Of a DNA stretch of 64,000 bases, positions 19,679 to 38,565 are shown piece after piece. The notes beneath the pieces were generated by a model. It worked only from the letters and a program-made list of their open reading frames with translations, searched no databases and was not told the origin of the DNA. Made by a program: the position numbers and the translations under genes. This DNA is from a virus: the IMG/VR virus record IMGVR_UViG_3300031963_008656, positions 1-64,000 of that record; one strand, given 5' to 3'. How positions within the stretch are numbered: position 1 is the stretch's first letter; the number at the start of each line of letters is the position of its first letter.

Positions 19679-20524
19679 TTATTTGCCCCATCCATTACCC
19701 CAGAGGTCCACATGCAATCGTGGGCTGTACCAATAACCTCGTTTGAGTGCTTCGTCGGCAACGTGAATTCTATTGCCATCATACACACTCACAACACCGC
19801 CAACAGGCATCACAAAAACTGGTCCGCTAAATCCACGGGTTCGATAGTCGTCAACTACTAGATCAAGCTCTTTGAAATCATCAATGTGACCAACAACAAA
19901 CTTCAAATAGGTAACACCGTGAGTTTCGTAATCCCAAATAATGTCAGGTTTGATAGCATCTTCATACTTTTCACCACTGACACTAAGTTTAGGACTTACT
20001 GAGAATGTGATCTCGCCAAACCATTCAGACAGATACTGTTTGAATTCTCTTGTGAGTTCTTGAGTACCATTGGTTTCAAATGTAATGTGTCGCAGTCCAC
20101 GTTCGTGCAACAGATTCAACAGTTCAGGATATGCACGTTGCCAACCTAGCAATGGCTCGCCACCTGTGATCACAAGATGCACTGAATTGCCGTTTGGTTG
20201 TTGCCAGTGGCCATTGGGCAACAGCGCAGCCATTTTGTCAACTAACTCTTGTGCTGTGTATGTGGGACTTAGATGTTTAAAGTCAGGATGCCAACTTGCA
20301 TACGAATCGCATCCTGTATTAACCAACGGGAGCTCTTCAAAAGTCTTGTAGAGATGAACGCTCTTTGCGACGTCATCTGCCTCAGTGCTCTTATCACCGG
20401 GTTGGCATCCAAATCCCGAACACGTAAAGTTGCAACCGAAGGTTCGTAAGAAGATAGAAGGAACTCCAATATAGCGTCCTTCGCCCTGAGCAGAATAAAA
20501 TAGTTCACTTACTTTTAATTTCAT
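19679..20524 (-). CDS. queE: 7-carboxy-7-deazaguanine synthase (radical SAM)
   Basis: FYSAQGEGRYIGVPSIFLRTFGCNFTCSGFGC aligns to E. coli QueE F.TLQGEG..GVP.IF.R..GC...C..C. Confidence 0.8.
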   Translation of the reverse strand: MKLKVSELFYSAQGEGRYIGVPSIFLRTFGCNFTCSGFGCQPGDKSTEADDVAKSVHLYKTFEELPLVNTGCDSYASWHPDFKHLSPTYTAQELVDKMAALLPNGHWQQPNGNSVHLVITGGEPLLGWQRAYPELLNLLHERGLRHITFETNGTQELTREFKQYLSEWFGEITFSVSPKLSVSGEKYEDAIKPDIIWDYETHGVTYLKFVVGHIDDFKELDLVVDDYRTRGFSGPVFVMPVGGVVSVYDGNRIHVADEALKRGYWYSPRLHVDLWGNGWGK

Positions 20525-20527
20525 TGT

Positions 20528-21238
20528 TTATAACCTTGTTACCTTTGACATTCCCGACTTGCGGGGATTCTTATTTAGATTGATACTTTCATCATGCATT
20601 TTAACACGAGTAGATTGTTTTGTCACCCAACCCGGTAATACTGCATCTAAATAGGCCAAATGTTCTTCGGGGCTGGGATGTGGGTCACCGTTTCTATTAG
20701 GATATCCAGTGTTTTTAAATACAGTTTTGTCATACCCTGGTTTGATACTTAAAACCACATTTTCGTACAATCGCATGACATCTCTGTGTTTGCTAACATT
20801 GTCGGACGGAAATGGCATGGCCATTAATTCTACCATACTCAAAAATTCCCATTTTAGATTGTGTCGAGATTCCAGTAGAGTTTTAACTGCTTTGATGCAT
20901 GCCAGATCTCTAATTAGGAATCCTCTTTCATCCATGTGTGTTTTAAGGTATTCTTTGTTAAACACATTGGTTGCGAAGTGTGCATTTCCGGGTGTGTGCC
21001 ATCGACCGTCAACATATCGATCCTCTCGATCTAAACTGGTCCAGCATACAACAACAGTATCTCCGTCACCAAAACAATGCCTTTGATCAGCCTCCATGAC
21101 TGAATTGAAAATATATTGATTTCCTCCTCCTGCCTGGCCCCAATTTTCAAAGTGATCAAATTCTGGAGCAAGACAATCTGCCCAGGTGCTCCAGCGATAG
21201 TTTGTAAAACTACAACCAAACGTAAACAGTCGGCGCAT
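20528..21238 (-). CDS. GCS(F)(T) N-terminal-motif paralog 2
   Basis: MRRLFTFGCSFTNY... Confidence 0.45.
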   Translation of the reverse strand: MRRLFTFGCSFTNYRWSTWADCLAPEFDHFENWGQAGGGNQYIFNSVMEADQRHCFGDGDTVVVCWTSLDREDRYVDGRWHTPGNAHFATNVFNKEYLKTHMDERGFLIRDLACIKAVKTLLESRHNLKWEFLSMVELMAMPFPSDNVSKHRDVMRLYENVVLSIKPGYDKTVFKNTGYPNRNGDPHPSPEEHLAYLDAVLPGWVTKQSTRVKMHDESINLNKNPRKSGMSKVTRL

Positions 21239-21240
21239 TG

Positions 21241-23223
21241 TTAGGCTGCTAGTTTTGCCCTGGCGCCAGCATCTCCGCGTTTGGCAACGTCTACCTGCGT
21301 GTCAGCGTTCAAGCATTCAACTGTGGCTTTTCCAAAATTTCTACGTCTAGCAAAATAAAATAGTTCTAAGAAACGTGGAAAGCTCATAGTTTTATCTTCT
21401 GGAAACTCCAGTTGATATTCTCTTGGCGCATGTACAAGTTTGTGATCAAAGCTGAGATATTCCCAGATGTTGTAGTCTAATTCTAAAACCTCAGGATAAG
21501 TGTTCATAGCATCGTAAGCCACATGGTATCTGCGTTGGAATCGCATGATGTTCTCCAACAACACAGGCGGTAAATCATAACGACTCATGAACTTTTCTAA
21601 CATGTCAAAGATATTGTGATTTTGTTTTTCCACATGCATGTTCAACACAGTTCTGTGTATGAGGTTCCATCCGTGAATTTCAATGCCAATCTTGGGATGA
21701 TTGATTCGGCCATTGGTCATCCAACTGCGATAGTACTCGCGAACTTCTTCTTGTTCGCGGTGGATCCATTCATGACCTTGCACGTATTCAAACAGGTCTG
21801 CATAAAACTCGCTGTAGGGCACACCCTGATACTTGAACACCAATCGACTCAACAGTGTGCTGATGCCATTGATGTGGAAGGTATTGATAAACCATGAAAA
21901 AATATGTGCTTCCATCATGACATCAAACGGCATGTCTTTGGTGCCAGTGATAATGTCAATGGCTTCTTCAATGTGTTCGTTGGAGTATGATCCAGAAAAA
22001 TAGTCTGTTACACTTTGATTGGTAATCTTAAACAACTTCTTCTGCAACAGGTTCATTTCGGCATTTTCCAACAACTGAGCCTGGAACACCGTGAGACCAG
22101 TATGATTGCCCATTTCAAACAAAGTCCAAAAGTTTTTCTTCCAAGACTCAAGACTTTCACCAGGTAGGCCCAAGATAAGTTCAGTGTAGGTTGGAATGTT
22201 ACGTTGCTCACACAGCTCAAATACTTCGTTGAGCTTGTTCATTTCCATGTTTTTGCGACGAATGTTTTCCAATACATCCAAGTCAAGACTTTGCACACTC
22301 AGCGTTAGACCTTGATTGAAGCCTCGGGCATCCAGCAATTTTTTAACAATGTCCACAACTTCTTTCTTTTGATTCTTGGCCCAGGCCACAGAGAAAGTTC
22401 TCGGAGAACCATACTTTTCTTGACATTCAATAATCTTGTCTGCAATCAAACTGTCACGTTCGGCAAACATGCCAAAGTTAGCGTCAGTAATTGATATGAA
22501 ATCAAAGTTGTGCTTAGCCATCCATTCCAACTCATGGTACACACGTTCTAAACCAAACTTCTTGACCTTGTTGTATGTCAAGCTACCCCAGTCACAAAAC
22601 GTACAAGCAAATGGGCAACCACGAGAAGTTTCTAGTGTGCCTTGCCACATGATGTCAGGATTTGCAGCCATTAGGTCATCAAATACACCTGCCAGATACG
22701 GGCTAGGAATATCTTCAAGAGTTTCAATGCGCTTGGCATCACCTGTGCTTATAGCTTCGCCGTCTCGATTGATCAGCAAGCCAGGTATTGACTCCCAGTC
22801 TTTGCTGTCATATGCCAGCATGAGATTTCTAAATGTGATTTCACCTTCGTAGCAAATCACAATGTCCATGAATGGTTCTTTGCGAAACAGATCTTTGTCT
22901 GTGATTGCAGGTTCGGGACCGCCAAATATGGTCAACACGCCAGGATTGATCTCCTTGAGCCTGCGAGCCAATGCATAGTTGAAATTGTGATTCCACACAT
23001 AAGTGCTAAAAGTCACAACATCATTTTCAGCCAGTCGTTGTGCAATTGGCTCTATGTTGTCCCGGCGCCACACCCATTCAGTCACTTGCCATGCATCACG
23101 TATGCTGGGTTCCGCAACTGCATAACTCCAAATCACACCTGCTGAGTATGGCAGGTAGTAGGCATTGAGTTCTTTAGGACCTTGTTGGAAGTTTGGTTGT
23201 ACCCAGGCAATTTTTCTTTTCAT
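21241..23223 (-). CDS. B12-binding radical SAM enzyme (class B; putative C-methyltransferase or related)
   Basis: 660 aa. The N-terminal about 150 aa is B12-binding-like. Radical SAM cluster ETSRGCPFACTFCDW. Confidence 0.7.
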   Translation of the reverse strand: MKRKIAWVQPNFQQGPKELNAYYLPYSAGVIWSYAVAEPSIRDAWQVTEWVWRRDNIEPIAQRLAENDVVTFSTYVWNHNFNYALARRLKEINPGVLTIFGGPEPAITDKDLFRKEPFMDIVICYEGEITFRNLMLAYDSKDWESIPGLLINRDGEAISTGDAKRIETLEDIPSPYLAGVFDDLMAANPDIMWQGTLETSRGCPFACTFCDWGSLTYNKVKKFGLERVYHELEWMAKHNFDFISITDANFGMFAERDSLIADKIIECQEKYGSPRTFSVAWAKNQKKEVVDIVKKLLDARGFNQGLTLSVQSLDLDVLENIRRKNMEMNKLNEVFELCEQRNIPTYTELILGLPGESLESWKKNFWTLFEMGNHTGLTVFQAQLLENAEMNLLQKKLFKITNQSVTDYFSGSYSNEHIEEAIDIITGTKDMPFDVMMEAHIFSWFINTFHINGISTLLSRLVFKYQGVPYSEFYADLFEYVQGHEWIHREQEEVREYYRSWMTNGRINHPKIGIEIHGWNLIHRTVLNMHVEKQNHNIFDMLEKFMSRYDLPPVLLENIMRFQRRYHVAYDAMNTYPEVLELDYNIWEYLSFDHKLVHAPREYQLEFPEDKTMSFPRFLELFYFARRRNFGKATVECLNADTQVDVAKRGDAGARAKLAA

Positions 23224-24089
23224 GCATTATTTACTTGTTTTTGATCAGTATCTTTTTTTGCAAAATGTGTATGCGGGTTGGCAAATTGAACCATTTGACT
23301 GTTTACATCATTCTGTGCTAGTTTTTCCCAGGGATCTTGACTGCCGTTGAACACGTTGGTAAAGAATGAAAGATCCATACCTAATTCACTGCGCATGTAT
23401 GTGGCCAATTTTGCACAGTCTCGGTGTCGCAGGTCCATTTGCTGAACGCTGTGAAAGTCCAACGGATCATCGGGGCGACCTTCTAGCATGGCACGATTTT
23501 TAAATGTTTCATCGCCGTTGTTGCCAGTCAAGTCGTGGCGATCATGTTCTACCCATACTGGAATTCTTTCCCAAATGTCCAGCATGTATGCCTGTTGACT
23601 CAACCACCCATCTTGTGTGGGATGGGGACTGATGTATCCCAACAGTTCATACCATTTGCGTGGAACTATTGGAAAAATTGAGTAGGGGTGGTCGTTGTGA
23701 GTATGGAATGCCAGCAATCTAAACTTGCCATTGTATTTCAAAATCTCACTGTCCCACCCCTGGGTTTGCATGATGGCATCATCATTCCAAATAACAAACC
23801 AAGGAGCCAGGGCTTTCTCAGCCATCTTGTTGTTGTAGATATGCAATCTGATATATCCCAATGGGTCAAACAACATGGCGGTATAGTGATAACCGTGTGA
23901 GTCTAACCAAGGCTGCAATTCAGTTTGGAAGTACGTTTTGCCTTTGTCATCGTCTTTGTCAAATCCAAACATGATTTGCAAACGATGAGGATTGTCAGCC
24001 AGTTCAAACAAACTGCGAACACTTTTGCCCAACGCTTCTGTACGACCTCGAGTGGCCAACAGTAAAGATATATCAAATTCTTGTGCCAT
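23220..24089 (-). CDS. putative GT-A-fold glycosyltransferase
   Basis: N-terminal DISLLLATRGRTEAL (GT2-like) and WNDD DxD-like motif. Confidence 0.5.
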   Translation of the reverse strand: MAQEFDISLLLATRGRTEALGKSVRSLFELADNPHRLQIMFGFDKDDDKGKTYFQTELQPWLDSHGYHYTAMLFDPLGYIRLHIYNNKMAEKALAPWFVIWNDDAIMQTQGWDSEILKYNGKFRLLAFHTHNDHPYSIFPIVPRKWYELLGYISPHPTQDGWLSQQAYMLDIWERIPVWVEHDRHDLTGNNGDETFKNRAMLEGRPDDPLDFHSVQQMDLRHRDCAKLATYMRSELGMDLSFFTNVFNGSQDPWEKLAQNDVNSQMVQFANPHTHFAKKDTDQKQVNNA

Positions 24090-24112
24090 AAATTCCTACC
24101 AATTTGATGTAA

Positions 24113-24733
24113 TTATGCTTGATTGTCTGCAGCCAGCTTTTTCTGCAAGTGATTCAACAAGAAACCATACGCAGGCAGAATAACCAACAGACTCACAATG
24201 ATCTTACTGATTGAATTGTTGGTTGCAACAATGTGCCAGTTAGCAGCCATGAACTCATTTGCGCCACCAGCAAAGGCAGTAAAGAAGAACACATAGGTAT
24301 CAAAGAATGTGCTCACAATTGAACTCAATGCAGGAGCAATCCACCAAGTGGCGTACTTTTCACGAATGTATTGGAACACGTACACATCAAGCAAGTTGCT
24401 CACAAAGTATGCAACACCCGAGCCAAGACCAATGCGGAAAGCAACTGAGTCAGGAGCACCGCCCAGTTTGACCACTGCCATTGACACAATGATAGCAGGG
24501 ATGAATGCCAATGCAATCACCGCACGACCAGTTTGTTTGCCTAACATTCGCACAGTCAAGTCGGTCAACACAACCACTAGTGGGAATGTGAATGCGGCTG
24601 CTGCCAATGGTGCACCAAACACTGAGAATTTGAATTGCACAATGTAGTTGCTGATAGCAATGATAATGATATGTGCCAGCATGAGCTTGTAGGCCAATGC
24701 ACGGTCAACGCCACTTAAGATTCGATCTAACAT
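24113..24733 (-). CDS. yhhQ: queuosine-precursor transporter (YhhQ/VUT family, DUF165)
   Basis: 206-aa polytopic membrane protein; ...VYFVSNLLDVYVFQYIR... resembles YhhQ. Confidence 0.65.
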   Translation of the reverse strand: MLDRILSGVDRALAYKLMLAHIIIIAISNYIVQFKFSVFGAPLAAAAFTFPLVVVLTDLTVRMLGKQTGRAVIALAFIPAIIVSMAVVKLGGAPDSVAFRIGLGSGVAYFVSNLLDVYVFQYIREKYATWWIAPALSSIVSTFFDTYVFFFTAFAGGANEFMAANWHIVATNNSISKIIVSLLVILPAYGFLLNHLQKKLAADNQA

Positions 24734-24750
24734 GATTTTTCCTTGTTATA

Positions 24751-25257
24751 TTAAACGAATAGATCTTCCATCCACTCGCGATGGCCTTCTCTAAAAGCCA
24801 TATTGCTCTGTGTTTCGCGCACTTCCACACGATAGCACCAGAGACGCTCTGCTTCACCCGGTCCCCACAGGTCCGGAATGTAAACACCGTTCACATACTT
24901 GTACAGCATGTCTGCCAAGCCTTCACACCCTAAGCGTGGCAGGATTGTGAGTTTGGCCATTTTTTTCTCTTGCAAGAGCTTGTATGTCGCCAGCTCTGGA
25001 TCATCTGCAGACACCAGCAAGGTATGATCAAATTGATCTTCTAATGTCTTTTTAAGTTCTTTGAGACCGCCATAGTCAGCGGCCCAGTTACGCACATCCA
25101 GGTTGTCTGTGCCAAAGTAGAACTTCATTGAGAATGAGTAACCGTGAATTAGATTGCAGTGGCTGTCGGCACGCCATTGACGGTATGCGCAGGGAAAAGC
25201 ATCATGATACTCTTTGGTGCTGGTGTACTTGTATTGTACTGGTTGATTTGTTGCCAT
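24751..25257 (-). CDS. queD: 6-carboxy-5,6,7,8-tetrahydropterin synthase
   Basis: CxxxHGH zinc motif (HCNLIHGYSF), about 168 aa. TATAAT and AGGAGG sit immediately upstream. Confidence 0.8.
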   Translation of the reverse strand: MATNQPVQYKYTSTKEYHDAFPCAYRQWRADSHCNLIHGYSFSMKFYFGTDNLDVRNWAADYGGLKELKKTLEDQFDHTLLVSADDPELATYKLLQEKKMAKLTILPRLGCEGLADMLYKYVNGVYIPDLWGPGEAERLWCYRVEVRETQSNMAFREGHREWMEDLFV

Positions 25258-25359
25258 ATTGTCCTCCTATGTATTATAGCATAGGCAGCAGAGTTTGTAT
25301 AGCGGGATGATGCCGGACAGGCCGCTTAGAGAAATACTTATATTAAATATCAACAGAGG

Positions 25360-26016: not shown

Positions 26017-26021
26017 GTTAA

Positions 26022-26426
26022 TTATGGTTTTTGGTAACTACCTGTTTTGTAGTTAGCTTGTCCAATAATAACCCCACGTACTCCGCCCACTGGGTCAGCA
26101 CAGTCACCTGCTCGGCGTGGAATCAAATGCACATGTGGATACATCACAGTTTGACCTGCTTCACGACCCATGTTGATGCCGATATTAAATGCATCACATT
26201 CGCCATTGACAACCATTCTGCGACCATGCAGCATGGCTGATTCAAAACAGTCCATGATTACCGCATCGTTATTGTACTGTGGCACAAACAACAAATGACC
26301 GGGTGTGACAGGATAACGATCACGAAACACAGCCACGTGATAGTCTGACAGTTCTGTCACACGGTCGTCCCAGGGTGCAATATCTTGTTGATATGCAATT
26401 TCTAAATCAGTCATAATAGTTTTCAT
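26022..26426 (-). CDS. HIT-like (histidine-triad-related) nucleotide-binding protein
   Basis: YPVTPGHLLFVP and the YPHVHLIPR core partially match a HIT fold and motif; the third His is absent. Confidence 0.4.
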   Translation of the reverse strand: MKTIMTDLEIAYQQDIAPWDDRVTELSDYHVAVFRDRYPVTPGHLLFVPQYNNDAVIMDCFESAMLHGRRMVVNGECDAFNIGINMGREAGQTVMYPHVHLIPRRAGDCADPVGGVRGVIIGQANYKTGSYQKP

Positions 26427-26869: not shown

Positions 26870-27039
26870 TCTTGATCCAAGGCCTCAATAGCATTGTCAT
26901 ATCCACGTTGGAAGTCGTCAGCATCTGCTTCGGCATCTTCCAGTTTCAAATAGGGGTTGAGGCATTTTTCGCCGGCCTTGGCCTGCTCATAGCCTTGTTG
27001 ATAAGGCGCTTGTTCATAAGGAGTGATTTTCTTAGCCAT
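26866..27039 (-). CDS. small ORF with a ribosome-modulation-factor (Rmf)-like motif, 57 aa, below the track threshold
   Basis: Hand translation: MAKKITPYEQAPYQQGYEQAKAGEKCLNPYLKLEDAEADADDFQRGYDNAIEALDQE. Compare E. coli Rmf ...QRGYQAGIAGRSKEMCPY... It exactly fills the gap with TAATG and GTGA overlaps. Confidence 0.35.
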   Translation of the reverse strand: MAKKITPYEQAPYQQGYEQAKAGEKCLNPYLKLEDAEADADDFQRGYDNAIEALDQE

Positions 27040-27487: not shown

Positions 27488-27898
27488 TCATACGCAAACT
27501 TCCTCTTTGAGATATCGTTTGAGTTCTTTGTCATTGGGTTCTACAGTATAGTTCTTCTTGAAAAAAATTTCATAACTATCACTGCCGTATTTGCCAATGC
27601 CGTACAAATCGGTAGCATCATCACCATTCCAAGTCATGTAGTCTTGACTCATTTTTTTCAATCTGGTGTATCTTACATTAGCCATACCTAATGGTGCAAT
27701 AATGCTTTTTACAAAATCTTCATCGGCTGCGATCAATGCTTCCGGCGTTGGGAACCAGTATAAAAATTCTGGCAAGGTTGTTTTTACAGATTTGCGGCCT
27801 GTTTGATTCAACATGATCACTCCAACCATGTGTTCCCATGAGTTAGAGATTTGTTGTTGAACCATCAGATCATCTCGTAATGCATGAAAAAATATCAT
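27488..27898 (-). CDS. hypothetical protein
   Basis: 136-aa ORF. Confidence 0.45.
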   Translation of the reverse strand: MIFFHALRDDLMVQQQISNSWEHMVGVIMLNQTGRKSVKTTLPEFLYWFPTPEALIAADEDFVKSIIAPLGMANVRYTRLKKMSQDYMTWNGDDATDLYGIGKYGSDSYEIFFKKNYTVEPNDKELKRYLKEEVCV

Positions 27899-28587
27899 CG
27901 TGGTGCAAAGTCCTGTTGTAGTTTGATGTTGTCAAAGAATTCTTTTTTTACACTTTGGTCTGATTTAAACGCACCGTGTAAAACTGTTGTTTGGGTGAGA
28001 CTAGAGTGAGCCATGATACCGCGATTCTCACAACAACCATGGGTAGCTTGTATATAAACTGCAACATCCTTGGACCCGGTCGCGAATTCAATTTCGCGAG
28101 CAATATCCATACATAGCTCTTCTTGGAGAGTGCCTCGACGGGCACACCATTGCGCAATCCTGGTATACTTGGATAGACCAATAAGTTTGGGGCCAGCAAT
28201 GATTCCAATATAAGCCACACCCGTAACAGGCTGGTGATGATGCGAACACATGCTCTTAAGCTCTGAACGCACCACAAGCATACCTTCGTATGCTCCGTCC
28301 GTATCGTTTGGGAAAGCCGTAGCATTAGGGCTCGTCTCATAGCGACCAGCCATAATTTCATTGAAGTACATTTTTGCAAGGCGTTGCGCCGTGCCTTGTG
28401 AGTTAGGATCATTTTCCCTGTCAATTAGTAGTGTATCGAGAACTTGTTCAAATGCTTGAGTGGCCTCCATAATCAAATGTTCACGATCTGACTCAGCAAC
28501 ATAATCACTGATGTTGTCACCAGCCCAGAATCTCTTGCCGTCTGCCTTCATGCGTTCGCGAAGGACTTGTGATAGATTTTTTTCCAA
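27895..28587 (-). CDS. folE: GTP cyclohydrolase I
   Basis: SMCSHHHQPV (compare CEHH) and ATHGCCENRG (compare HMCMxxRG). TTG start in the track. Confidence 0.8.
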   Translation of the reverse strand: MEKNLSQVLRERMKADGKRFWAGDNISDYVAESDREHLIMEATQAFEQVLDTLLIDRENDPNSQGTAQRLAKMYFNEIMAGRYETSPNATAFPNDTDGAYEGMLVVRSELKSMCSHHHQPVTGVAYIGIIAGPKLIGLSKYTRIAQWCARRGTLQEELCMDIAREIEFATGSKDVAVYIQATHGCCENRGIMAHSSLTQTTVLHGAFKSDQSVKKEFFDNIKLQQDFAPR

Positions 28588-30317: not shown

Positions 30318-30910
30318 TCAACAATCTTGATATTTCTTAGATCAGGATATGGCACATACACAGGTTTAGGATTGTGTTCCTTGACACCTTGTAGCAATGC
30401 CACACCTTGAATGGCATCTTCAATACTGGGCTTGTAGTGATAGCCCACATGAAATGTCTTTTGGTCCTGCCAAGGTGCCACAGTCAAGTCTCTGCCATCA
30501 TAGCGTTGGCGCAATATGGTTTCATATGCTTTTTTATCATCCAACAATATAGCACCACCATGCCCAATAGCCAATGGCTTTGTATGTCCAAAACTCAAAC
30601 ACTGCATGGTGCCTGGCCGATACATATCCTGTTCCAATCTGCGAGCTGAGTCCCAAATTCTAGTGTAAGTGAATTCATACTCGCCTTCCCAATGCTGCCA
30701 GTCAATATCGTGATAGACATAGTGAATGCCTAACTTGTGCATGGTCATAGGAATGCTCAAATAAGTGTAAGGTGTAAACTTACAAGCTCGTACTCGATCA
30801 TATCGCAAGCAAAGTTCAATGGCATGTGTACAGCAATCAGTCATGATTGCATACGGTGCTCCTGTGAACTCTGCTAGTTCTTCTTCAAACTTTTTTATCT
30901 TGTCGAACAT
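30314..30910 (-). CDS. short DegT/DnrJ/EryC1/StrS-like PLP aminotransferase domain protein
   Basis: TDCCTHAIELCLRY and SFGHTKPLAIGHGGAIL (compare SFHxxK...GEGG); only 198 aa. Confidence 0.5.
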   Translation of the reverse strand: MFDKIKKFEEELAEFTGAPYAIMTDCCTHAIELCLRYDRVRACKFTPYTYLSIPMTMHKLGIHYVYHDIDWQHWEGEYEFTYTRIWDSARRLEQDMYRPGTMQCLSFGHTKPLAIGHGGAILLDDKKAYETILRQRYDGRDLTVAPWQDQKTFHVGYHYKPSIEDAIQGVALLQGVKEHNPKPVYVPYPDLRNIKIVE

Positions 30911-31847
30911 ACCAGTTCCATGCGTGTTGAATCATGTCATCTAGCTCATAATGACGCCATGCTCCTGCTATCAAATTAAACTTTTCTGAACTGGCAGTAA
31001 GTACAGGAGGGTCACCGGCTCTACGCTTGCCAACAACAACATTCAATGGTTGTTGTGTTTCATCAAGTGCGGCTTCAATAATGCCGTGATTGCTTGTGCC
31101 CATGCTGGAGCCAAGATTGTAAACGCCCGCAGGGATTTTGTGATATAACGCCAGAACGTGGGCCCGGGCAATATCATCCACATGCACGTAATCACGCACA
31201 CATGTACCATCCTCAGTGGGGAAATCGTTTCCGTTTAACACAAAATCTTTTTGATCCCTTATGCTTTCAAGCACTCTAGCAATAATATGTGTGGCACCAG
31301 GCTCTTGACCATGCCTGCCTTTGGGGTCTGCACCACATGCATTGAAATAGCGAAAACTAACATAGTCAAGACCGTATGCCCGGTGATAGCTTTCCAGCAT
31401 CATGTCAATCATCAGTTTAGATTCGCCATAAGGACTAACAGGTTCGTTGGGATCCACTTCATGTATGGGATTCATGACGGGCTCACCGTATGTGGCTGCT
31501 GAACTTGAAAACACCAATCTACAACGAGGCATGCTTTGTTTAACAATATCCAACAACTTCAATGTTTTGGCCACATTGTTGTTGTAGTATTCTGAAGGGT
31601 TCTGTACTGAAGGCCCCACAAGGCTGGTGCCAGCACAATGAATGATAGCATTGGGTTGCTTTTGTATGATCCAACTCAGTGCTACATCACTTGCAAAGTC
31701 CTGATACAAGAATCCATCGGGCACACCTCTAAGATGTTCAGGAGGCTGTCTGCGATCAATGCCGTATACTTCATGCCCGGCATCTTTCAATGCCAGCATG
31801 GTCTGACCACCAATGTACCCGGCTGATCCAGTTACAATTACAATCAT
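30885..31847 (-). CDS. NAD-dependent sugar epimerase/dehydratase (UDP-glucose 4-epimerase-like)
   Basis: VTGSAGYIG Rossmann motif and YGESK (YxxxK). Confidence 0.75.
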   Translation of the reverse strand: MIVIVTGSAGYIGGQTMLALKDAGHEVYGIDRRQPPEHLRGVPDGFLYQDFASDVALSWIIQKQPNAIIHCAGTSLVGPSVQNPSEYYNNNVAKTLKLLDIVKQSMPRCRLVFSSSAATYGEPVMNPIHEVDPNEPVSPYGESKLMIDMMLESYHRAYGLDYVSFRYFNACGADPKGRHGQEPGATHIIARVLESIRDQKDFVLNGNDFPTEDGTCVRDYVHVDDIARAHVLALYHKIPAGVYNLGSSMGTSNHGIIEAALDETQQPLNVVVGKRRAGDPPVLTASSEKFNLIAGAWRHYELDDMIQHAWNWYVRQDKKV

Positions 31848-33058
31848 TTTTCAATCTTTACAACTTGATATTTTTCGTGAGAAGCGTGGTCACGATAGCG
31901 GTTGCCCGCTCTATTCCATTGCTCACCGCTACCACTAATAATATCAATAACGCGATCCACAGTGGCATTGTTCCAATCTGAAATAAGTCCCATGTTGTGG
32001 TGCGGCTCGCGAAGTAGGTTTTGCATTTTGTGATAAGCATCATCTATGCTCCAGGGAATATACAGTCTATTGGGATCGTTCGCGAAGGTTTCAGGAAAAC
32101 TGCGATACGCTGGATATAGCACATTGCATCCAACAGTATCGGCCTCTGATACGGTGTTTGAAACCCAATCTTGTAAAGCACAATTAAACAACACACGAGT
32201 ATTGTTGAGATGACTATAGTATTCATTCTTGCTTATATTGTCGTAGATCTTGAGCTTGCCTTCTGCCTCCATACGGAGGGCACGTTCAATATAGTCTGGA
32301 TTGTTGGATCGGAGAGGTCCGCCACTGTATATTGCAAACTCACACGGTTCGGAGGTAAGCTCACCATACATCTCAATAAGGTCCATGAAGAATCCAGGTT
32401 GTTTTTCCTGATCGAAACGGGCTGCAAAACCCACTCGTCTCGGTCTTTCAGCAAACGGCGTGATATTCTCTGTACCGCCAATTCTTTCCAGAACCTCTGA
32501 TTTTCCAAATGCCAGACCGGAAATGTTGTAGATTGGAGCAGTCCATCCAGCGATGCGCATGTGCGCGACCATTTCTTCATTGGTAGCCAATACTGCACCC
32601 CCCGAGAAAGCCACCATCTCATTGACCATTTGTTCATACAAGTTCATCCACTTTGCCATACCCCACACATGCACAAAGTCATCAGGATCAATGGCCTGTG
32701 CCAAACAACGAACATAAATCTTTGGACATTGTTCTTGTGGAATCTGATTCATGATGTAACCAAGGCTTTCAAAGCCCGGCTGGAACATGTCTTCAAAGTA
32801 GATCACATCGTCACCGGTAACATCGCCGTTCTTCATGAGCTGAACCAAGTTCATCATTTGGCTCATGGCAAAGAAACTGCGTCCGTGTGCGTCTAACACT
32901 TGACCTACTGAGATAGCTTGTGTGTTGTCAATTGTAGTGCCAGGCACATACACAACATCAAGACCTCTGCGGTCAAACACACGTCGATTCCACTCTGTGA
33001 GTTGTAGTGTGTAGCGGGCTTCATAACTTTCCAAGCCCATGTAAAATAGTTTTCTCAT
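31844..33058 (-). CDS. hypothetical protein (possible sugar-modifying enzyme)
   Basis: 404 aa, lies within the glycan-gene block. Confidence 0.5.
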   Translation of the reverse strand: MRKLFYMGLESYEARYTLQLTEWNRRVFDRRGLDVVYVPGTTIDNTQAISVGQVLDAHGRSFFAMSQMMNLVQLMKNGDVTGDDVIYFEDMFQPGFESLGYIMNQIPQEQCPKIYVRCLAQAIDPDDFVHVWGMAKWMNLYEQMVNEMVAFSGGAVLATNEEMVAHMRIAGWTAPIYNISGLAFGKSEVLERIGGTENITPFAERPRRVGFAARFDQEKQPGFFMDLIEMYGELTSEPCEFAIYSGGPLRSNNPDYIERALRMEAEGKLKIYDNISKNEYYSHLNNTRVLFNCALQDWVSNTVSEADTVGCNVLYPAYRSFPETFANDPNRLYIPWSIDDAYHKMQNLLREPHHNMGLISDWNNATVDRVIDIISGSGEQWNRAGNRYRDHASHEKYQVVKIEK

Positions 33059-33762
33059 TGATGTTCCTGTAAAAATTTTATCACTGTGGGTTTTAAATGT
33101 TCTGCAAACAGTACATTGCCTTTGAAGTTTGGATGAACATTGTTGAACAAATCTTGTGTTTCAAGTTGTTTCCAAAAAAAGAATGTGTCCCACACACTGT
33201 CTACCAAACTTGGTTCTGGATCGATGTTAGGGGTTTCGTGCATGAACCTGTGTATAACTTCAGCACCCCAACAATGATGCATATCAAATTCTGTGCCATC
33301 GTTTAGTATAACACAAACCGACCCATTATTAATAGTCATTCCGGCTTTGTCTGCTAGAAATTTTTGCCAGGAAAGATGTCCTATAGTAATGTTTGGATAA
33401 TTGCAATTAACAATGTCACTGTGTGCTCCAATTAACAACACAGGTTTATTTAAACTGTTGATTTTGTTCAGACAAAATTGATTGCATTCTTCCCAAATAT
33501 CTTTCCAGTCTGAACGCTGAATAAATTCTTTGAAAGTTAACTTAGTTGCATCTTGTAAACACAAAATAGGTTCATTATAGATCCAAATTACAGGTACATT
33601 AGGCGATCGTACCAATCTAATATAACTTCCCAACACACTAGTTCCAGATTGAGCATGGTCATAGAACTCAAACCCCCATTCCTTGGCAAGATTAGTTGTT
33701 GGTACATCCAGCGGCCAACTAGATGCCGCCCAACTTGGTCCAGTGTATGTAAATTTTTTCAT
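33055..33762 (-). CDS. hypothetical protein
   Basis: Start moved to Met69 to remove overlap with the 75-aa gene upstream. Confidence 0.45.
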   Translation of the reverse strand: MKKFTYTGPSWAASSWPLDVPTTNLAKEWGFEFYDHAQSGTSVLGSYIRLVRSPNVPVIWIYNEPILCLQDATKLTFKEFIQRSDWKDIWEECNQFCLNKINSLNKPVLLIGAHSDIVNCNYPNITIGHLSWQKFLADKAGMTINNGSVCVILNDGTEFDMHHCWGAEVIHRFMHETPNIDPEPSLVDSVWDTFFFWKQLETQDLFNNVHPNFKGNVLFAEHLKPTVIKFLQEHQ

Positions 33763-33769
33763 CAGCCAC

Positions 33770-33997
33770 TTAGTTACGAAATGCTCCGGCAAAGCGACGA
33801 GTGTCTTCGTCCCACATGTTCTTGGCATTCTTGCCTTGTGAAAACTTGTTGAACTGCTGCCAGGCATAACTCTTAAAGTTATACAAATCGGCTTCGTTGT
33901 AACGATAACCGTAGTCTTGGCAGAACTCCTGGAAGTGCTCAAGATGCTCAAAGAGCTCGGCCACACGTGGGTTAGATTTAATAGCGATTTTTGCCAT
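33770..33997 (-). CDS. hypothetical protein
   Basis: 75-aa ORF. Confidence 0.4.
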   Translation of the reverse strand: MAKIAIKSNPRVAELFEHLEHFQEFCQDYGYRYNEADLYNFKSYAWQQFNKFSQGKNAKNMWDEDTRRFAGAFRN

Positions 33998-34008
33998 TTT
34001 GTTTCCTA

Positions 34009-34452
34009 TTAGATAGCAATGTTAATACTAGGGCGGTGAGTTTCATACTTAATAAGAGCTCCGTTTTCACCATCTTCGGAGACCTCAATCCAGACTGAGC
34101 GTTCTGGATACCGTGCGGCAATTTGCAAATACAAATCGTCTGACATCATTTCACATGACTTGTAGTCGAGTTGGACGGTTCCTGACTCGTAGAGTTTTTG
34201 TAGCCATCGTTTGAACTGGATGAATTCAATGTCTCGATCATTGTGTACAACATCAATCCACACCCGGAAGTGGAAGATATGACGGTGAGGAGTACCAAGG
34301 AAACTAACATCATACTCATCGCCCGTCTTAAGGGCTGGATCTGTTGCGGCTGCGGGGTAGAAGTGGATGCCTTCTTTTTGGAAGGTAACCCAGATTCTTC
34401 TTTGTGCGGCATATTTGATTCTTTCAATTTGTTCACGTTCATCTTGTATCAT
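34009..34452 (-). CDS. hypothetical protein
   Basis: 147-aa ORF. Confidence 0.45.
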   Translation of the reverse strand: MIQDEREQIERIKYAAQRRIWVTFQKEGIHFYPAAATDPALKTGDEYDVSFLGTPHRHIFHFRVWIDVVHNDRDIEFIQFKRWLQKLYESGTVQLDYKSCEMMSDDLYLQIAARYPERSVWIEVSEDGENGALIKYETHRPSINIAI

Positions 34453-34982
34453 TTGATTACTTCATCCTTTGTGTATTGGTCCCAAGAGGTAAATGTTTTT
34501 CTATCCAGCAAGTCATGCAGGCTGTGACACCATACTCCTGGGTTGGTTGCTTTGAAATCTTTGTCGTCTAGCTTGATAGTGGCATTGTAGCCTAGCAGTT
34601 TAATATAAGGCAGTTTCACTGAAATCATAGGAACAAATTGTGCTTGTTCGCACAAGCTACCTTCGCACAATCCTTCCACAGCACTTGAATCAAGATCCAA
34701 GGTACACCAGTATCCTCGATCCAGCCACGGTTGAATCATCTGTTCCCAGGCAGTCCAGACTCCAGCATCGTTCATAGTGGGGTTTGGAAAACTTTGATTG
34801 GCGCCAAAGTAGATGTGTGTGATTGGATTTTTACTCTTGTGGTCTGACTCACCCAGTTGCCACATGATTTGATCTGCATCTTGCAGTCCGACCACAAACA
34901 ATGTACGGTGACCGGCTACAGGACTGGCCTCAACTTCTGTACCTACAAAGAAATTGGTATCTTCGTGTCCGGGTCTATTCAT
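34449..34982 (-). CDS. hypothetical protein
   Basis: 177-aa ORF. Confidence 0.45.
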   Translation of the reverse strand: MNRPGHEDTNFFVGTEVEASPVAGHRTLFVVGLQDADQIMWQLGESDHKSKNPITHIYFGANQSFPNPTMNDAGVWTAWEQMIQPWLDRGYWCTLDLDSSAVEGLCEGSLCEQAQFVPMISVKLPYIKLLGYNATIKLDDKDFKATNPGVWCHSLHDLLDRKTFTSWDQYTKDEVIK

Positions 34983-35956
34983 AATGTAATCTCAAATAAG
35001 TTAGATAAATGTTTGTTGTTTGCTTTTTTGTCTGTCTTAGTTTTTTTCATGCCAGGGTGTACCTTTTTATTTTTAAATTCAGTAGCATCAAAAATTGATC
35101 TTGGCACAAAGAAACGATCCATAACTCCAGATACTTTGGTATAACTTTTACCAAGGTCATTGCCGTTAAAATCACACATCACATAATCACCTAACCCCAT
35201 CATAAGATTGATAATATCATTGCAAGTGTACCCAAATCGTTTACAATGTGTATCTCGCAGTTCGACCTGAACCACGGGTTGATACTTAGCAATGGTTTGT
35301 GTTGCACCTTCTAATGCAAACAGTTCAGAACCTTCAATATCAATCTTAATAAGATCAACATTTTCAAACCCAAAACTGTCAAGTGTGCGTTGCTCTGCAG
35401 TCTGTGTGGGATTGTTGGTAGTTTTGCCATCAAGTAACACAGCATCACCGCGACTGCACTCGTTGGTTTTTTGTTCCATGGTAATAATTCCAGCGACTTT
35501 ACCTAATGCATATTCAAAAAACTCAATCTCTCCTATCAAGTCAAGACTGGCAAATGTGCCATTGGGGAACTTGAACCAGCCATCTGGACGATCCGGCTGA
35601 TGTCTTACTTGTTGCAGTTTGCTATCCCAATAACGACCTTGAAGTTTTGCATTTTTTGCAATGTCTACATTGAGTTTCATTAGTTCCATGCTAGACTGCA
35701 TGGGCTCAAAGGTTTTTACATGTTGGCACCAGGTGGCATATTCAATTGCGTTCATGCCAATGTTGCCACCAATGTCAATTACAGTTCTTGCATTAGGTAG
35801 CAAGCGACGATTCATTACCAAATTGCGAGCCTGGTATGGACCGTTTTCTCTTGCCATACGCTGTTCATAAAGTTTGTCATTGTCCCAGATCCAATATTGC
35901 CTGCCTATGCGGTTTGTTACTAGTTTTTTGTTGTTGATATCAAATAGTTGTGCCAT
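34979..35956 (-). CDS. FkbM-family methyltransferase
   Basis: VIDIGGNIGMNAIEY (compare DIGANIG). Confidence 0.6.
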   Translation of the reverse strand: MAQLFDINNKKLVTNRIGRQYWIWDNDKLYEQRMARENGPYQARNLVMNRRLLPNARTVIDIGGNIGMNAIEYATWCQHVKTFEPMQSSMELMKLNVDIAKNAKLQGRYWDSKLQQVRHQPDRPDGWFKFPNGTFASLDLIGEIEFFEYALGKVAGIITMEQKTNECSRGDAVLLDGKTTNNPTQTAEQRTLDSFGFENVDLIKIDIEGSELFALEGATQTIAKYQPVVQVELRDTHCKRFGYTCNDIINLMMGLGDYVMCDFNGNDLGKSYTKVSGVMDRFFVPRSIFDATEFKNKKVHPGMKKTKTDKKANNKHLSNLFEITL

Positions 35957-36027
35957 GTTGTTGCCTTATAAAGAAATCCTGCATACATATTTAACAGTAT
36001 ACAGGATCACGAGAGAGAAAGCAAGAG

Positions 36028-36951
36028 TTACTTCTTCTTTTTCCAACGATCTTTGAAGGCATCAGGGCACCATCTGGTTGCAATTTCCATTGGATCATTT
36101 TGAGCCAATACATCTAATGCTTCAGGAGTCAAATCGATTAACTTGCGTTCTGTCGAACCAGGAGTTATATTGTAGAGACTCTGCTTTGTTTCTTCCCTAA
36201 CATCTTCAAAATTTGAATCAGGAAGATCTTCAAACAAGCAAATAAATTCCTTGTAGTAAGAATTACGATTCCATCTATTATAGGTTACTTCTTGTATTGT
36301 TGCATTGGTTACGTCAATGAATCTTCCGTCAACATACTGTAACACTCCGTCGTTATATTTTTCAAACGGACGTAAATTTTCGTTAGTAGTGGGACCACCG
36401 TGTGTTCTTTCTGACGTATGAACGGTCGTTGCTAAAGCATGATTCATTGCATATCTAGCCATGTCTTTAGGGCTGACTCTCCTGCTGTTTTCGATCACTT
36501 CTCGAATTAAATCTTTTTCAATTTGTTTAATAGGATATGTGTGCTCGCAATGCCATTCATTGGCAAAGTTATCACCTGATAAACCGGCCAACCCTAGCTC
36601 ATGCATTCTTCCAATGGCCTTGCCAGTGATTAGATCTGTACCGCTATTGCCGGTAGCATGTTGTAATCCCATAACATCTGAATGAAATTTTCTGATACCG
36701 CCATTACTCCAATGCACAGTGTCACCAGAAATGCTCGCCTGGTTATATTCAGGTCCTGCGGCAAAACCACCATTGAAAAATCTTTTGTAATAGCAATATT
36801 CTTTGAGTTCTTCGATTGTGCGGGCTTTAACATGATTAGCAAATTTTCGCAAGTCGCCGGCCATAAATGCTAATCTTACACCGGCCGTTATAGCCTTTAG
36901 AACGGCTTTGTTGGGATCTTGTGCAAGTAGTTTCTGAATATTCAAAACCAA
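36028..36951 (-). CDS. hypothetical protein
   Basis: 307-aa ORF with AGGAG Shine-Dalgarno and a consensus promoter upstream. Confidence 0.5.
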   Translation of the reverse strand: MVLNIQKLLAQDPNKAVLKAITAGVRLAFMAGDLRKFANHVKARTIEELKEYCYYKRFFNGGFAAGPEYNQASISGDTVHWSNGGIRKFHSDVMGLQHATGNSGTDLITGKAIGRMHELGLAGLSGDNFANEWHCEHTYPIKQIEKDLIREVIENSRRVSPKDMARYAMNHALATTVHTSERTHGGPTTNENLRPFEKYNDGVLQYVDGRFIDVTNATIQEVTYNRWNRNSYYKEFICLFEDLPDSNFEDVREETKQSLYNITPGSTERKLIDLTPEALDVLAQNDPMEIATRWCPDAFKDRWKKKK

Positions 36952-36971
36952 CTCCTAAGTTGTTACAATGC

Positions 36972-37004
36972 ACACACTATAACACAAGAACAATTTTGAG
37001 TCAA
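36972..37004 (-). promoter_or_regulatory. sigma70 promoter (TTGACT-17-TATAGT)
   Basis: Minus-strand reading: TTGACT, caaaattgttcttgtgt, TATAGT. Confidence 0.5.
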
Positions 37005-37026
37005 TCAAATTGTTAAAATAAAAGTA

Positions 37027-38565
37027 TTATATTTCTGTGCTCAGGTTGTCCAATTTGTCACTGTCCAAATCTACTTCGTCGGGCTCCGACTCACTGTCCT
37101 CATATTCAAACAATGCATTGAATTGAGTAGTAGCATTCACAGTCTTCTTGCCCTTAAAGCCTCGTGTGCCCACAATCTCCATCCAATATGTACTGTATTT
37201 CTCAACAATAGATTCGGCTTGTTCTCTTGTGGGTGCAGTGAAAATATCTTCCACAATGTCTTCAAAGTAAGCATAGTCACCAGTGCTACGACGCATCATG
37301 GCAGGATGTTCTCCTGCATCAAAACGTCTATTGGCTTCTTGTACTGCGGTCAAGTGCATCCAGACATTATGGCCCATGAGTAAAGCATATGAGAAACTGT
37401 CCCACGATGTCTTGCCTTCTTTACCATTTTTATTTAGGTCGCCTGGCTTGTAGATACAGATGTCTTTCATCTTGAGAAGTTTGCTTATGGGGCTATCTTC
37501 CCAACGTGGTACTACTCCATCGGCAACTATACTTGTACCCCAGGCACGTGTGTCAGTGGCGTACTTTTTGTCGTCGGCTGTAGGAGCCATGCGATACGAC
37601 CATTTTGAGTTGTTTTCAAAGACATTTTCAAAGTAGACCTGTCCGTTTGCTGTTGCAAGGAACGGACTGGCGCAGTCAAACGAGATTGTGAAGTTTGGAT
37701 TGACATATTTTCTCACGGCCCTTTGGATTACAGTTAATAAAACAGCCCACTCCAGTTTGGAGGTTCCCAAGAAGTGCATCCAATCATGGACACCTTCTTG
37801 AAGTAAATTGTCATAGCGCAATGCCACAATACGTTTGAGTACCAAGTGAACATCACACATGTTTTGTCCGCCCATGGCCCAGCCATTGAAATGCGTATCT
37901 GGATATTTTTGTGGATCGCAATAATCCTTCATCATCTGATACCATTCTTCTGCATGAGTATGGTTACCACCTTGCAACACATTCAAGAACTTGGTACCAC
38001 CGTTTGCCACACCCTTGCGATGTTTCATGAAGTATTCGTTGTTGTAATGTGTTGCCTTGACTGCCTCATCCAAAGTGCTAATGCCAGACTTCCATCCATT
38101 CTTTTCATTGATAACAAAACTTGGAATATCAAGTGTCATAGCATAGTCTGCTATACCATCTAACCAGGCTAGTGCTTGTTCTCGTTTGGCCTGAGCCTTG
38201 GCACAACCTGAGTTGGCTCGCCAATCACCTTCCCACACACCTTTAGCAATCTGGAAACCACCAGAGTCGCCCAGCATGATTGTGCCAGGCTCTCTGTTCC
38301 GTACCATGTCTTCTGACCAGTCTTGTTTAGCAAGATCGAGATTTGCATGCCCTCCAGAGTATAGGGACCAACGGTAAGGGAAAAGTGCTTTGGTAGAGTT
38401 AAGCCAATTAAGTTGCTCCATGTCACTAAGGCCCTGAGGCAATCTCGCCGGATCCACATATGGTTCATTCCTTTGCTTGCCTATGAACGTGGCATAGAAC
38501 CCGCTGATGGCCGGAAGGAACACAGCGTAGTCCGATTGCTTGGCAGTTAAGTCGTCTTGGGTCAT
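37027..38565 (-). CDS. dpdA: DpdA-like DNA-guanine transglycosylase (TGT family)
   Basis: IMLGDSGGFQIAKG catalytic motif (compare TGT ...DSGGFQ...); 512 aa. Confidence 0.7.
   Translation of the reverse strand: MTQDDLTAKQSDYAVFLPAISGFYATFIGKQRNEPYVDPARLPQGLSDMEQLNWLNSTKALFPYRWSLYSGGHANLDLAKQDWSEDMVRNREPGTIMLGDSGGFQIAKGVWEGDWRANSGCAKAQAKREQALAWLDGIADYAMTLDIPSFVINEKNGWKSGISTLDEAVKATHYNNEYFMKHRKGVANGGTKFLNVLQGGNHTHAEEWYQMMKDYCDPQKYPDTHFNGWAMGGQNMCDVHLVLKRIVALRYDNLLQEGVHDWMHFLGTSKLEWAVLLTVIQRAVRKYVNPNFTISFDCASPFLATANGQVYFENVFENNSKWSYRMAPTADDKKYATDTRAWGTSIVADGVVPRWEDSPISKLLKMKDICIYKPGDLNKNGKEGKTSWDSFSYALLMGHNVWMHLTAVQEANRRFDAGEHPAMMRRSTGDYAYFEDIVEDIFTAPTREQAESIVEKYSTYWMEIVGTRGFKGKKTVNATTQFNALFEYEDSESEPDEVDLDSDKLDNLSTEI

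Follow-up and report, generated by a model that had tools for sequence, protein, structure and literature searches.

A probable QueC-independent, DpdL-type 7-deazaguanine DNA-modification module with a divergent long transglycosylase in an uncultured jumbo phage

The window analysed here is a 64-kb stretch (positions 1 to 64,000 of IMG/VR record IMGVR_UViG_3300031963_008656) of the genome, ~350 kb in size, of an uncultured jumbo phage. All of the protein-coding genes in its open reading frame (ORF) list between 15 and 44 kb lie on the minus strand, and among them are genes for FolE, QueD, QueE, a YhhQ-type transporter, the QueD-like protein DpdL and a TGT (tRNA-guanine transglycosylase)-like protein of 512 residues, which we refer to as DpdA-long. 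An initial annotation of the window had recognized a phage 7-deazaguanine DNA-modification set around a TGT-like enzyme, and the gene families and the fold described below bear this out. The set is anchored upstream by genes for a DNA polymerase, g40078 and a sliding clamp (39322-43679) and downstream by an RNase H gene whose product is 46% identical to the RNase H of Pseudomonas phage PA5oct, where it likewise comes after QueE. No cultured phage matched the 20-kb region in a nucleotide search. Details of the features are presented in Table 1.

Table 1. Features of the window with their positions, strand and the basis or context of each assignment
Feature	Position	Strand	Basis or context
Gram-negative porin, phage-encoded	1670-2560	-	PF13609 E 2.8e-25; signal peptide, C-terminal Phe
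Fatty-acid desaturase	4549-5313	-	auxiliary gene
SPFH/Band-7 protein	5770-6564	-	auxiliary gene
AsnB-type glutamine-dependent amidotransferase, 513 aa	11448-12989	+	Cys2 glutaminase domain and SGGLDS PP-loop
MazG/PRA-PH-type nucleotide pyrophosphohydrolase	15473-15862	-	just beyond RNase H
RNase H / 5'-3' exonuclease	16891-17925	-	PF02739 E 8e-20; downstream anchor
QueE, 7-carboxy-7-deazaguanine synthase (radical SAM)	19679-20524	-	five NCBIfam QueE models, E 1e-10 to 3e-14
B12-binding radical-SAM protein, 660 aa	21241-23223	-	KedN5 family sugar C-methyltransferases, NF033712 E 1.8e-76, below cut-off
GT289, second glycosyltransferase-like protein	23220-24089	-	phrog_14945 glycosyltransferase, E 3e-9
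YhhQ/COG1738 7-deazapurine precursor transporter	24113-24733	-	PF02592 E 2e-21, 77 bits (cut-off 27)
QueD, 6-carboxy-tetrahydropterin synthase	24751-25257	-	PF01242 E 5.2e-16, 59 bits (cut-off 22)
HIT-family nucleotide hydrolase or transferase	26022-26426	-	PF01230 E 7.5e-10
Small HhH-GPD (EndoIII/MutY-like) protein, 136 aa	27488-27898	-	PF00730 E 3.5e-9; variable block member
FolE, GTP cyclohydrolase I (GTP to H2NTP)	27895-28587	-	PF01227 E 2.8e-39; NF006824 E 6e-41
DegT/DnrJ-type sugar aminotransferase-like protein, short, 198 aa	30314-30910	-	PF01041 E 2.4e-16
NAD-dependent sugar-nucleotide epimerase/dehydratase (SDR)	30885-31847	-	PF01370 E 3e-54; PF16363 E 7e-41
GT404, GT4-like (GT-B) glycosyltransferase	31844-33058	-	conserved neighbour of DpdL
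DpdL, QueD-like T-fold protein, putative CDG decarboxylase, 147 aa	34009-34452	-	LxxxHRHxF signature; phrog_17812 E 7e-36
g177, conserved 177-aa protein	34449-34982	-	directly upstream of DpdL
DpdA-long, divergent DpdA-type guanine transglycosylase, 512 aa	37027-38565	-	TGT fold, DSGGFQ, no Zn-Cys cluster
Sliding clamp	39322-40044	-	homologous to PA5oct EST35_0314 and the Phosso clamp; upstream anchor
g40078, ORF without assigned function	40078-41082	-	between DNA polymerase and clamp; upstream anchor
Family-B DNA polymerase	41019-43679	-	PF00136, PF03104; upstream anchor
Dps/ferritin	47486-47986	-	auxiliary gene
Radical-SAM/SPASM protein	48366-49469	+	auxiliary gene
PIG-L deacetylase	52286-52798	-	auxiliary gene

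For comparison, 80 viral contigs encoding close relatives of the window DpdL were scored with all of the window proteins, and genes were counted within 10 kb of DpdL. The presence of DpdL in 80/80 of these loci is by construction of the search, the count for QueD is limited by the length of the flanks, and the contigs represent one lineage so that their synteny is not independent evidence. The deazaguanine genes occur together in these contigs and also in several cultured phages, and therefore their co-occurrence in the window is not due to chance. DpdA-long was found in 75 of the 80 loci, followed by g177 (72), GT404 (68), FolE (55), the SDR epimerase/dehydratase (50, always directly after GT404), DegT (47, between the epimerase and FolE), QueD (36) and GT289 (24, immediately after QueD). 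Rarer are the sulfotransferase (17), the B12 radical-SAM protein (9), HhH-GPD (5), the FkbM methyltransferase (4), the accessory YhhQ (4) and g307 (1). On long contigs the genes form a compact, co-directional series in the order DNA polymerase, g40078, clamp, DpdA-long, g177, DpdL, GT404, epimerase, DegT, FolE, HIT, QueD, GT289, g236 and QueE; the HIT gene lies between FolE and QueD in the relatives L053, L070, L022, L082 and L035. The order DNA polymerase, clamp, DpdA-long is shared by PA5oct, Vibrio phage 2.275.O and 68 of the 80 loci.

The genes had earlier been described as scattered over about 19 kb among sugar-tailoring genes. The scattering is real in this genome, but the relatives have one compact co-directional block, and the spread in the window is therefore due to accessory insertions, namely the FkbM methyltransferase, sulfotransferase, B12 radical-SAM, g307, HhH-GPD and YhhQ genes. 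As for the sugar genes, GT404, the epimerase/dehydratase and DegT are conserved members of the block and not filler; the presence of sugar enzymes inside the conserved core is more unusual than the scattering itself. We also considered g307 (36028-36951, 307 aa), which adjoins DpdA-long, as the counterpart of the DpdA-adjacent gene in ACP17 and PA5oct, and rejected it as there is no similarity and only one of the 80 relatives carries it; it is an insertion.

Pfam and NCBIfam searches confirmed folE, queD, queE and the YhhQ gene where they had been annotated, all on the minus strand, with clear matches for FolE, QueD and YhhQ and matches under the cut-offs for QueE. The window FolE is 62% identical to FolE of Sinorhizobium phage Phosso and the window QueD is 52% identical to QueD of phage ACP17. 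In QueD the motif reads HCNLIHGY (HCxxxHGY), where the last histidine of CxxxHGH is replaced by tyrosine, and the same replacement is seen in the QueD proteins of phages phiST and ACP17. Curated models recognize YhhQ well: TIGR00697 gives 102 bits (cut-off 51) and NF008406 an E-value of 4.7e-49. Vibrio phage 2.275.O also encodes a homologue, in its preQ1-type cluster. Alignment of the window QueE with those of BUCT-ZZ01, PA5oct, ACP17, phiST and Phosso revealed the QGEG and TGGEP motifs and a C31-x3-C35 pair which is invariant in all six. The third cysteine, C71, is part of a CDS motif located after an insertion, a feature common to phiST, PA5oct and BUCT-ZZ01; identity of the window QueE is 47% with BUCT-ZZ01 and 31% with PA5oct. 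This QueE variant is plausibly active since phiST, which has the same variant, demonstrably makes deazaguanine.

DpdL is a key component of the block. Its motif LGTPHRHIF corresponds to LxxxHRHxF, which replaces the QueD motif CxxxHGH and aligns with the same signature in phiST, ACP17, Phosso and BUCT-ZZ01, and residues H30, H56, H58, H70, E76, E101 and E126 are invariant. By tblastn the window protein is 68% identical to its homologue in Phosso, 55% in ACP17 (E 1e-39), 53% in PA5oct and 32% in phiST (CGPG_00067, E 3e-9). DpdL was named by Hutinet et al. in 2023, who described it as a QueD-like T-fold protein and proposed that it decarboxylates 7-carboxy-7-deazaguanine (CDG) to 7-deazaguanine (DG); it occurs in phages having DpdA, FolE, QueD and QueE but lacking QueC (PMC10516641). 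One of these, phiST, has all of its G replaced by 2'-deoxy-7-deazaguanine (dDG); dCDG, the 2'-deoxynucleoside of CDG, is not detectable in its DNA (PMC10516641). The window shows the same context, with FolE, QueD, QueE and DpdA present and QueC not found in it, and DpdL is present in every cultured relative without QueC.

The absence of QueC had been noted from the ORFs and it holds within the 64-kb window. E. coli QueC searched against the six frames of the window by phmmer and tblastn gave no match (all E > 0.3); the same query does recover the QueC of 2.275.O, a related Vibrio phage, at E 5e-25, so that the negative result is meaningful. Near DpdL, QueC is found in none of the 80 related loci (within 10 kb) and in none of 7 cultured phages. 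The only PP-loop (SGGxDS) in the six frames belongs to the AsnB-type asparagine synthase, which lies among glycosyltransferase-like ORFs on the strand opposite to the deazaguanine genes. We also weighed this protein as a hidden QueC, and discarded the idea because it matches asparagine synthase models and is unlinked to DpdL in the 80 loci. Thus, the QueC gap is explained by DpdL, and the QueC-less gene set is an already published pathway type. The initial annotation was right in expecting a product which is not derived from preQ0. It had offered dCDG or a derivative made by a non-canonical route, having missed DpdL; because a DpdL homologue with the signature motif is present, dCDG gives way to dDG as the leading prediction for the virion base.

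DpdA-long carries the DSGGFQ motif on which its earlier description as TGT-like was based. No match to the 512-residue protein was found in Pfam, NCBIfam, PHROG or PDB sequences. Against PF01702 it gave no match, and only 3 of the 62 family members in our alignment did so, at E 0.04 or weaker; a profile search of PDB sequences reached TGT at E ~1.4 only. DpdA3 and DpdA4 are likewise undetected by Pfam and were found with HHpred (PMC10516641). An AlphaFold2 model built with the 62-sequence alignment (predicted local distance difference test 89.6, predicted template modelling score 0.89) adopts the (beta/alpha)8 barrel of TGT. In a Foldseek search of the PDB with this model, the top six matches were tRNA-guanine or archaeosine transglycosylases (E 7.7e-7 to 1.1e-3), and in the BFVD viral structures 14 matches were significant, of which all annotated ones are phage TGT or DpdA-like proteins including DpdA2 of Vibrio phage nt-1 (R9TGF0, E 3e-9). 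The motif, the modelled fold and these matches substantiate the TGT-like assignment. Of the TGT fold and zinc site on which that assignment had been made to depend, the fold is present; the zinc site is not.

Profile comparison by hhalign aligns DpdA-long with E. coli Tgt (88.8%, E 2.5e-6), the match stopping before the zinc subdomain, with DSGGFQ on DSGGFQ and ISFDCASPF on MFDCVMPT. Residues D100, S101, G103, H264 and D297 are invariant across the 62 family members, and D146 is also present in the window protein. Since they are invariant and aligned with the Tgt motifs, D100 and D297 correspond to the two catalytic aspartates of TGT, D100 being the acid/base residue in DSGGFQ and D297 the nucleophile in the FDC motif. 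The TGT zinc site CxCxxC...H is absent: no cysteine column is more than 63% conserved among the 62 members and residues 300-470 contain no cysteine cluster.

Among named DpdA groups, DpdA-long is nearest to DpdA2. It matches ACP17 DpdA2 by hhalign at 96% (E 2e-9), the family hidden Markov model finds ACP17 DpdA at 3e-7, and tblastn groups ACP17 DpdA with DpdA2 of nt-1, VH7D and KVP40. Reciprocal tblastn of DpdA-long and DpdA2 showed no overlap and no similarity at the BLAST level. With phiST DpdA3 the hhalign match is weak (72%, E 3.5e-5, 82 columns only), and tblastn with phiST DpdA3 did not reach any PA5oct-type protein. We conclude that the 512-residue protein represents a long clade of its own among the DpdA-type transglycosylases, closest to DpdA2 and without demonstrable membership of DpdA3. 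From sequence comparison, this clade is best read as a sister of DpdA2 rather than a member of it. More than 7,000 non-redundant metagenome proteins match the family, some of them on contigs of ~350 kb; there are 965 clusters at 50% identity, and the exact 512-residue sequence is found on many metagenome contigs. Its relatives in cultured phages, all annotated as hypothetical, are confined to PA5oct-like Pseudomonas jumbo phages (36% identity), Phosso and 2.275.O. DpdA-long occurs alongside genes for deazaguanine in four distinct contexts: the window lineage, PA5oct (at a distance of three genes from DpdL, and near QueE), Phosso (in the same genome, ~170 kb away from DpdL) and 2.275.O (beside QueF, QueC, FolE and YhhQ). 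This abundant and unannotated long clade without zinc site is new beyond the published picture.

The glycosyltransferase GT404 is the most frequent of the sugar genes in the block. A GT404 profile searched against PDB sequences matched an entry deposited as WlaC (E 0.0012), and weak matches to Glycos_transf_1 were obtained for four GT404 homologues. Homologues are located beside DpdL in five other phage lineages, in differing gene orders: DpdA2, GT, DpdL, QueE in ACP17; DpdA2, DpdL, GT in BUCT-ZZ01; GT, DpdA, DpdL in X1/BUDD; DpdL, GT in Phosso; and a GT next to DpdL in PA5oct. Identities of the GT and of DpdL to the window proteins are incongruent, being 64% and 38% for BUCT-ZZ01 and 21% and 68% for Phosso, which argues for repeated association rather than simple co-inheritance. 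No glycosyltransferase was found near DpdL in phiST, nor within 8 kb of it in RHph_I1_18 or Ahp1. PA5oct EST35_0320 is a weak homologue of the window epimerase. In some relatives the B12 radical-SAM gene lies between the epimerase and DegT, which implies that sugar tailoring varies between strains. The conserved g177 is predicted to form an alpha/beta partial barrel most like QueE without the Fe-S cysteine motif, and it has a homologue upstream of DpdA2 in ACP17. The "glycosylase" upstream of DpdL in Phosso was considered as its counterpart and discarded for lack of similarity. There are three candidate readings of the associations of the GT and g177 with DpdL: formation of dDG may need them as accessories, they may decorate the base further, or their function may be unrelated and happen to be linked. 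A glycosyltransferase, amino-sugar genes and a QueE-like protein embedded in the conserved block are, like the long clade, new beyond the published picture.

Taken together, we read the region as a QueC-independent, DpdL-type 7-deazaguanine DNA-modification module in the replication-gene region of the phage, with a probability of roughly 70%. In the proposed pathway FolE, QueD and QueE would convert GTP through dihydroneopterin triphosphate (H2NTP) and 6-carboxy-tetrahydropterin (CPH4) into CDG, and DpdL, a QueD paralogue with the catalytic cysteine replaced by leucine, would convert CDG into DG, a chemistry taken from the literature proposal. DpdA-long would then exchange guanine in the phage DNA for the deazapurine after replication, using D100 and D297, and YhhQ, where present, would import exogenous deazapurine bases. 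The virion would thus be expected to carry dDG or a derivative, protecting its DNA from restriction. We infer DNA rather than tRNA as the target of DpdA-long. DNA of PA5oct resists several restriction enzymes, a pattern interpreted by the authors as modified G, and PA5oct is targeted by modification-dependent END nucleases (PMC12191111).

Several points weigh against this module assignment. DpdA-long has no TGT zinc site, fails every curated family model and is linked only weakly to DpdA3. QueE scores far under the trusted cut-offs of all five curated NCBIfam models. About 290 kb of the genome, where QueC could lie, is outside the window. The activity of DpdL is proposed and has never been reconstituted, and E. 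coli co-expressing the dpdL and dpdA genes of phiST or ACP17 produced no dDG (PMC10516641). Moreover, the phiST group, which has a different DpdA (DpdA3) and no adjacent glycosyltransferase, is the only one in which dDG has been measured, and the conserved glycosyltransferase, epimerase and aminotransferase in the block suggest a product other than plain dDG. The exact final base is an inference, and it may carry more than plain deazaguanine.

The last of these points leads to the best surviving alternative, in which the end product is a further decorated, probably glycosylated, 7-deazaguanine. Here GT404 would glycosylate the deazapurine, either while it is a free base or within DNA. In this lineage the sugar would be built by the SDR epimerase/dehydratase, DegT and HIT together with variable tailoring enzymes, namely the sulfotransferase, the FkbM methyltransferase and the B12 radical-SAM C-methyltransferase. 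The position of GT404 between DpdL and FolE in most of the loci, with the epimerase and DegT next to it, agrees with this idea, as do the GT homologues that adjoin DpdL in the five other lineages despite differing gene orders and DpdA types, and the incongruent identities of GT and DpdL. The chemistry has precedent among natural products, huimycin and dapiramicin being N2-glycosylated 7-deazapurines. The authors of the failed expression of ACP17 dpdA and dpdL suggested that other enzymes are needed (PMC10516641). However, plain DG offers no obvious hydroxyl acceptor, and the phiST group makes dDG without such a GT, which is also missing within 8 kb of DpdL in RHph_I1_18 and Ahp1. The 80 contigs count as one lineage, glycosyltransferases are common accessories in large phages where they could serve virion or host-envelope glycosylation, and the literature searched showed no glycosylated deazaguanine in DNA. 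On balance we regard a glycosylated end product as unlikely, though worth keeping in mind. A bolder version appears slightly more doubtful to us: that DpdL-type phages in general (this lineage, PA5oct, ACP17 and BUCT-ZZ01) install a sugar-bearing 7-deazaguanine by means of the DpdL-linked GT4-like transferase, with a variably tailored amino-deoxy sugar in this lineage and g177 as a partner handling CDG or DG.

Nucleotide-handling genes around the block raise the question of a pre-replicative route. A purine-type phosphoribosyltransferase is encoded beside QueE in PA5oct (EST35_0321, L001 15946-16380, PF00156 E 2e-11) and in BUCT-ZZ01 (L009 4093-4554, annotated XGPRT), and similar genes are present in 5 of the 80 contigs, e.g. 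at ~15316 in L082; no homologue of this type was found in the window. The placement by QueE hints that some DpdL-type phages convert a deazapurine base into a nucleotide. A MazG homologue lies between QueD and QueE in the relative L082 and an unrelated MazG-like gene lies beside DpdL in phiST; a MazG-type protein may clear the dGTP or GTP pool. In the pre-replicative scheme a phosphoribosyltransferase would make the nucleotide, which would be reduced and phosphorylated to a deoxynucleoside triphosphate and incorporated by the polymerase, with dGTP depleted by a MazG- or HIT-type hydrolase and the TGT-like protein secondary. Such a scheme would easily explain the complete replacement of G in phiST, and it draws on the phosphoribosyltransferases of PA5oct and BUCT-ZZ01 as well as on the MazG-like and HIT genes in or near the window block. 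We consider it improbable here, as the window has no phosphoribosyltransferase homologue, the lineage retains a DpdA-family protein in nearly all of its loci, and in the published view all known 7-deazaguanine DNA modifications are post-replicative (PMC10516641).

The ending envisaged in the initial annotation, where biosynthesis goes no further than CDG and dCDG, once inserted, stays in the DNA, is very improbable. FolE, QueD and QueE suffice for CDG, dCDG is known at low level in the DNA of a Sulfolobus virus, and Hutinet et al. consider that DpdA3 might insert CDG which is converted later (PMC10516641). Nevertheless, the strong conservation of DpdL in the lineage and in every QueC-less cultured relative argues for further processing of CDG, and phiST, with the same precursor genes and DpdL, has dDG and no detectable dCDG. 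Least credible of all is a first QueC half-reaction performed by the AsnB-type amidotransferase to give 7-amido-7-deazaguanine (ADG; dADG in DNA), for although it has the window's only PP-loop (SGGLDS) with an N-terminal Cys2 glutaminase domain, and adenylation of a carboxylate followed by amidation with glutamine-derived ammonia is what the step from CDG to ADG would require, it matches asparagine synthase models and not QueC, is encoded on the opposite strand, 21 kb away from DpdL and surrounded by unrelated sugar genes, is not near DpdL in any of the 80 loci and is unnecessary given DpdL.

Substitution by 7-deazaguanine is a major means by which phage DNA escapes restriction enzymes and CRISPR, and hosts answer it with dedicated counter-defences, among them the END nucleases. 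The DpdL-type module described here extends this picture in several ways. A large DpdA-like clade, none of whose more than 7,000 metagenome members matches Pfam or PHROG, has been overlooked. The long DpdA proteins are markers of this modification both in PA5oct, a therapeutic candidate, and in a lineage of ~350-kb phages that is widespread. Labelling of the long DpdA clade and of DpdL would let genome surveys recognize phages with modified DNA. The same DpdA backbone is combined with QueC and QueF in one relative and with DpdL and a GT in others, and therefore the modification chemistry appears exchangeable. The recurrent GT beside DpdL points either to an accessory step for dDG, which would explain the failed reconstitution, or to a new class of DNA hypermodification. 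A glycosylated 7-deazaguanine, if true, would be the first glycosylated purine analogue in a genome and a far more significant result.

A few further genes deserve mention. The start of the small HhH-GPD gene overlaps the stop codon of FolE by 4 bases; on contig L007 (19919-20878) FolE and HhH-GPD are called as a single fusion of 319 residues, and HhH-GPD is absent in L008. In the END nucleases of hosts, an inactivated EndoIII domain serves to sense modified bases, and so a mini-EndoIII that a phage encodes next to deazaguanine genes could act as a decoy or help in repair or excision. Elsewhere the auxiliary genes listed in Table 1 show an abundance of host-like genes for metabolism and the envelope in the window, and the phage-encoded porin is an unusual auxiliary gene which may hint at the host group.

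Among the closest known systems is the dDG system of the Cellulophaga phage phiST (FolE, QueD, QueE, DpdL, DpdA3; PMC10516641). It shares with the window the QueC-less precursor set, DpdL with LxxxHRHxF, QueD with HCxxxHGY, QueE with the third cysteine in the CDS motif, and a divergent TGT-like protein missed by curated Pfam models and encoded next to DNA polymerase genes. It differs in that its DpdA3 is 259 residues long and only marginally related to the 512-residue protein (hhalign 72%, no tblastn link), in having no adjacent glycosyltransferase, g177 or YhhQ, and in being a 79-kb phage as opposed to ~350 kb. PA5oct (Wroclawvirus, EST35_0316 to EST35_0322) has the gene order of the window: DNA polymerase, clamp, DpdA-long (36%), GT, DpdL (53%), QueE and RNase H. 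Its block, however, is compact, and DpdL and QueE are separated there by a truncated epimerase and a phosphoribosyltransferase; the DpdL motif is HFH rather than HRH and the block genes are all annotated as hypothetical. Our search of the literature for PA5oct-type DpdA, DpdL or glycosylated deazaguanine found nothing specific beyond the 2023 paper.

The DpdA2 systems (ACP17, BUCT-ZZ01 and X1 with DpdL; nt-1, VH7D and KVP40 of the preQ1 type) contain the closest named relative of DpdA-long, and ACP17 has, as in the window, a quartet of g177-like ORF, DpdA, glycosyltransferase and DpdL. DpdA2 differs from DpdA-long in the lack of BLAST-level similarity, in length and in the C-terminal half, and the Vibrio DpdA2 phages, unlike the window, use QueC and QueF to make dPreQ1. 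Bacterial Tgt has in common with DpdA-long the (beta/alpha)8 fold and the aligned aspartates of DSGGFQ (acid/base) and FDC (nucleophile). Identity is ~13%, the CxCxxC...H subdomain is missing from DpdA-long, the C-terminal region is different, and the invariant His264 takes the position of a hydrophobic residue in Tgt. Vibrio phage 2.275.O (348.9 kb) resembles the window in DNA polymerase (45%), clamp, DpdA-long (34%), FolE (55%) and YhhQ (41%), and its DpdA-long homologue (in L010 6905-13931) is a protein of 596 residues annotated as hypothetical. In place of DpdL and the GT, its DpdA-long is followed by QueF, YhhQ, QueC, an Ntn hydrolase and FolE. As DpdA-long lies directly beside these genes, the gene content predicts an unrecognized dPreQ1-type DNA modification in 2.275.O, and compared with the window lineage the downstream pathway seems to have been exchanged while DpdA-long was kept.

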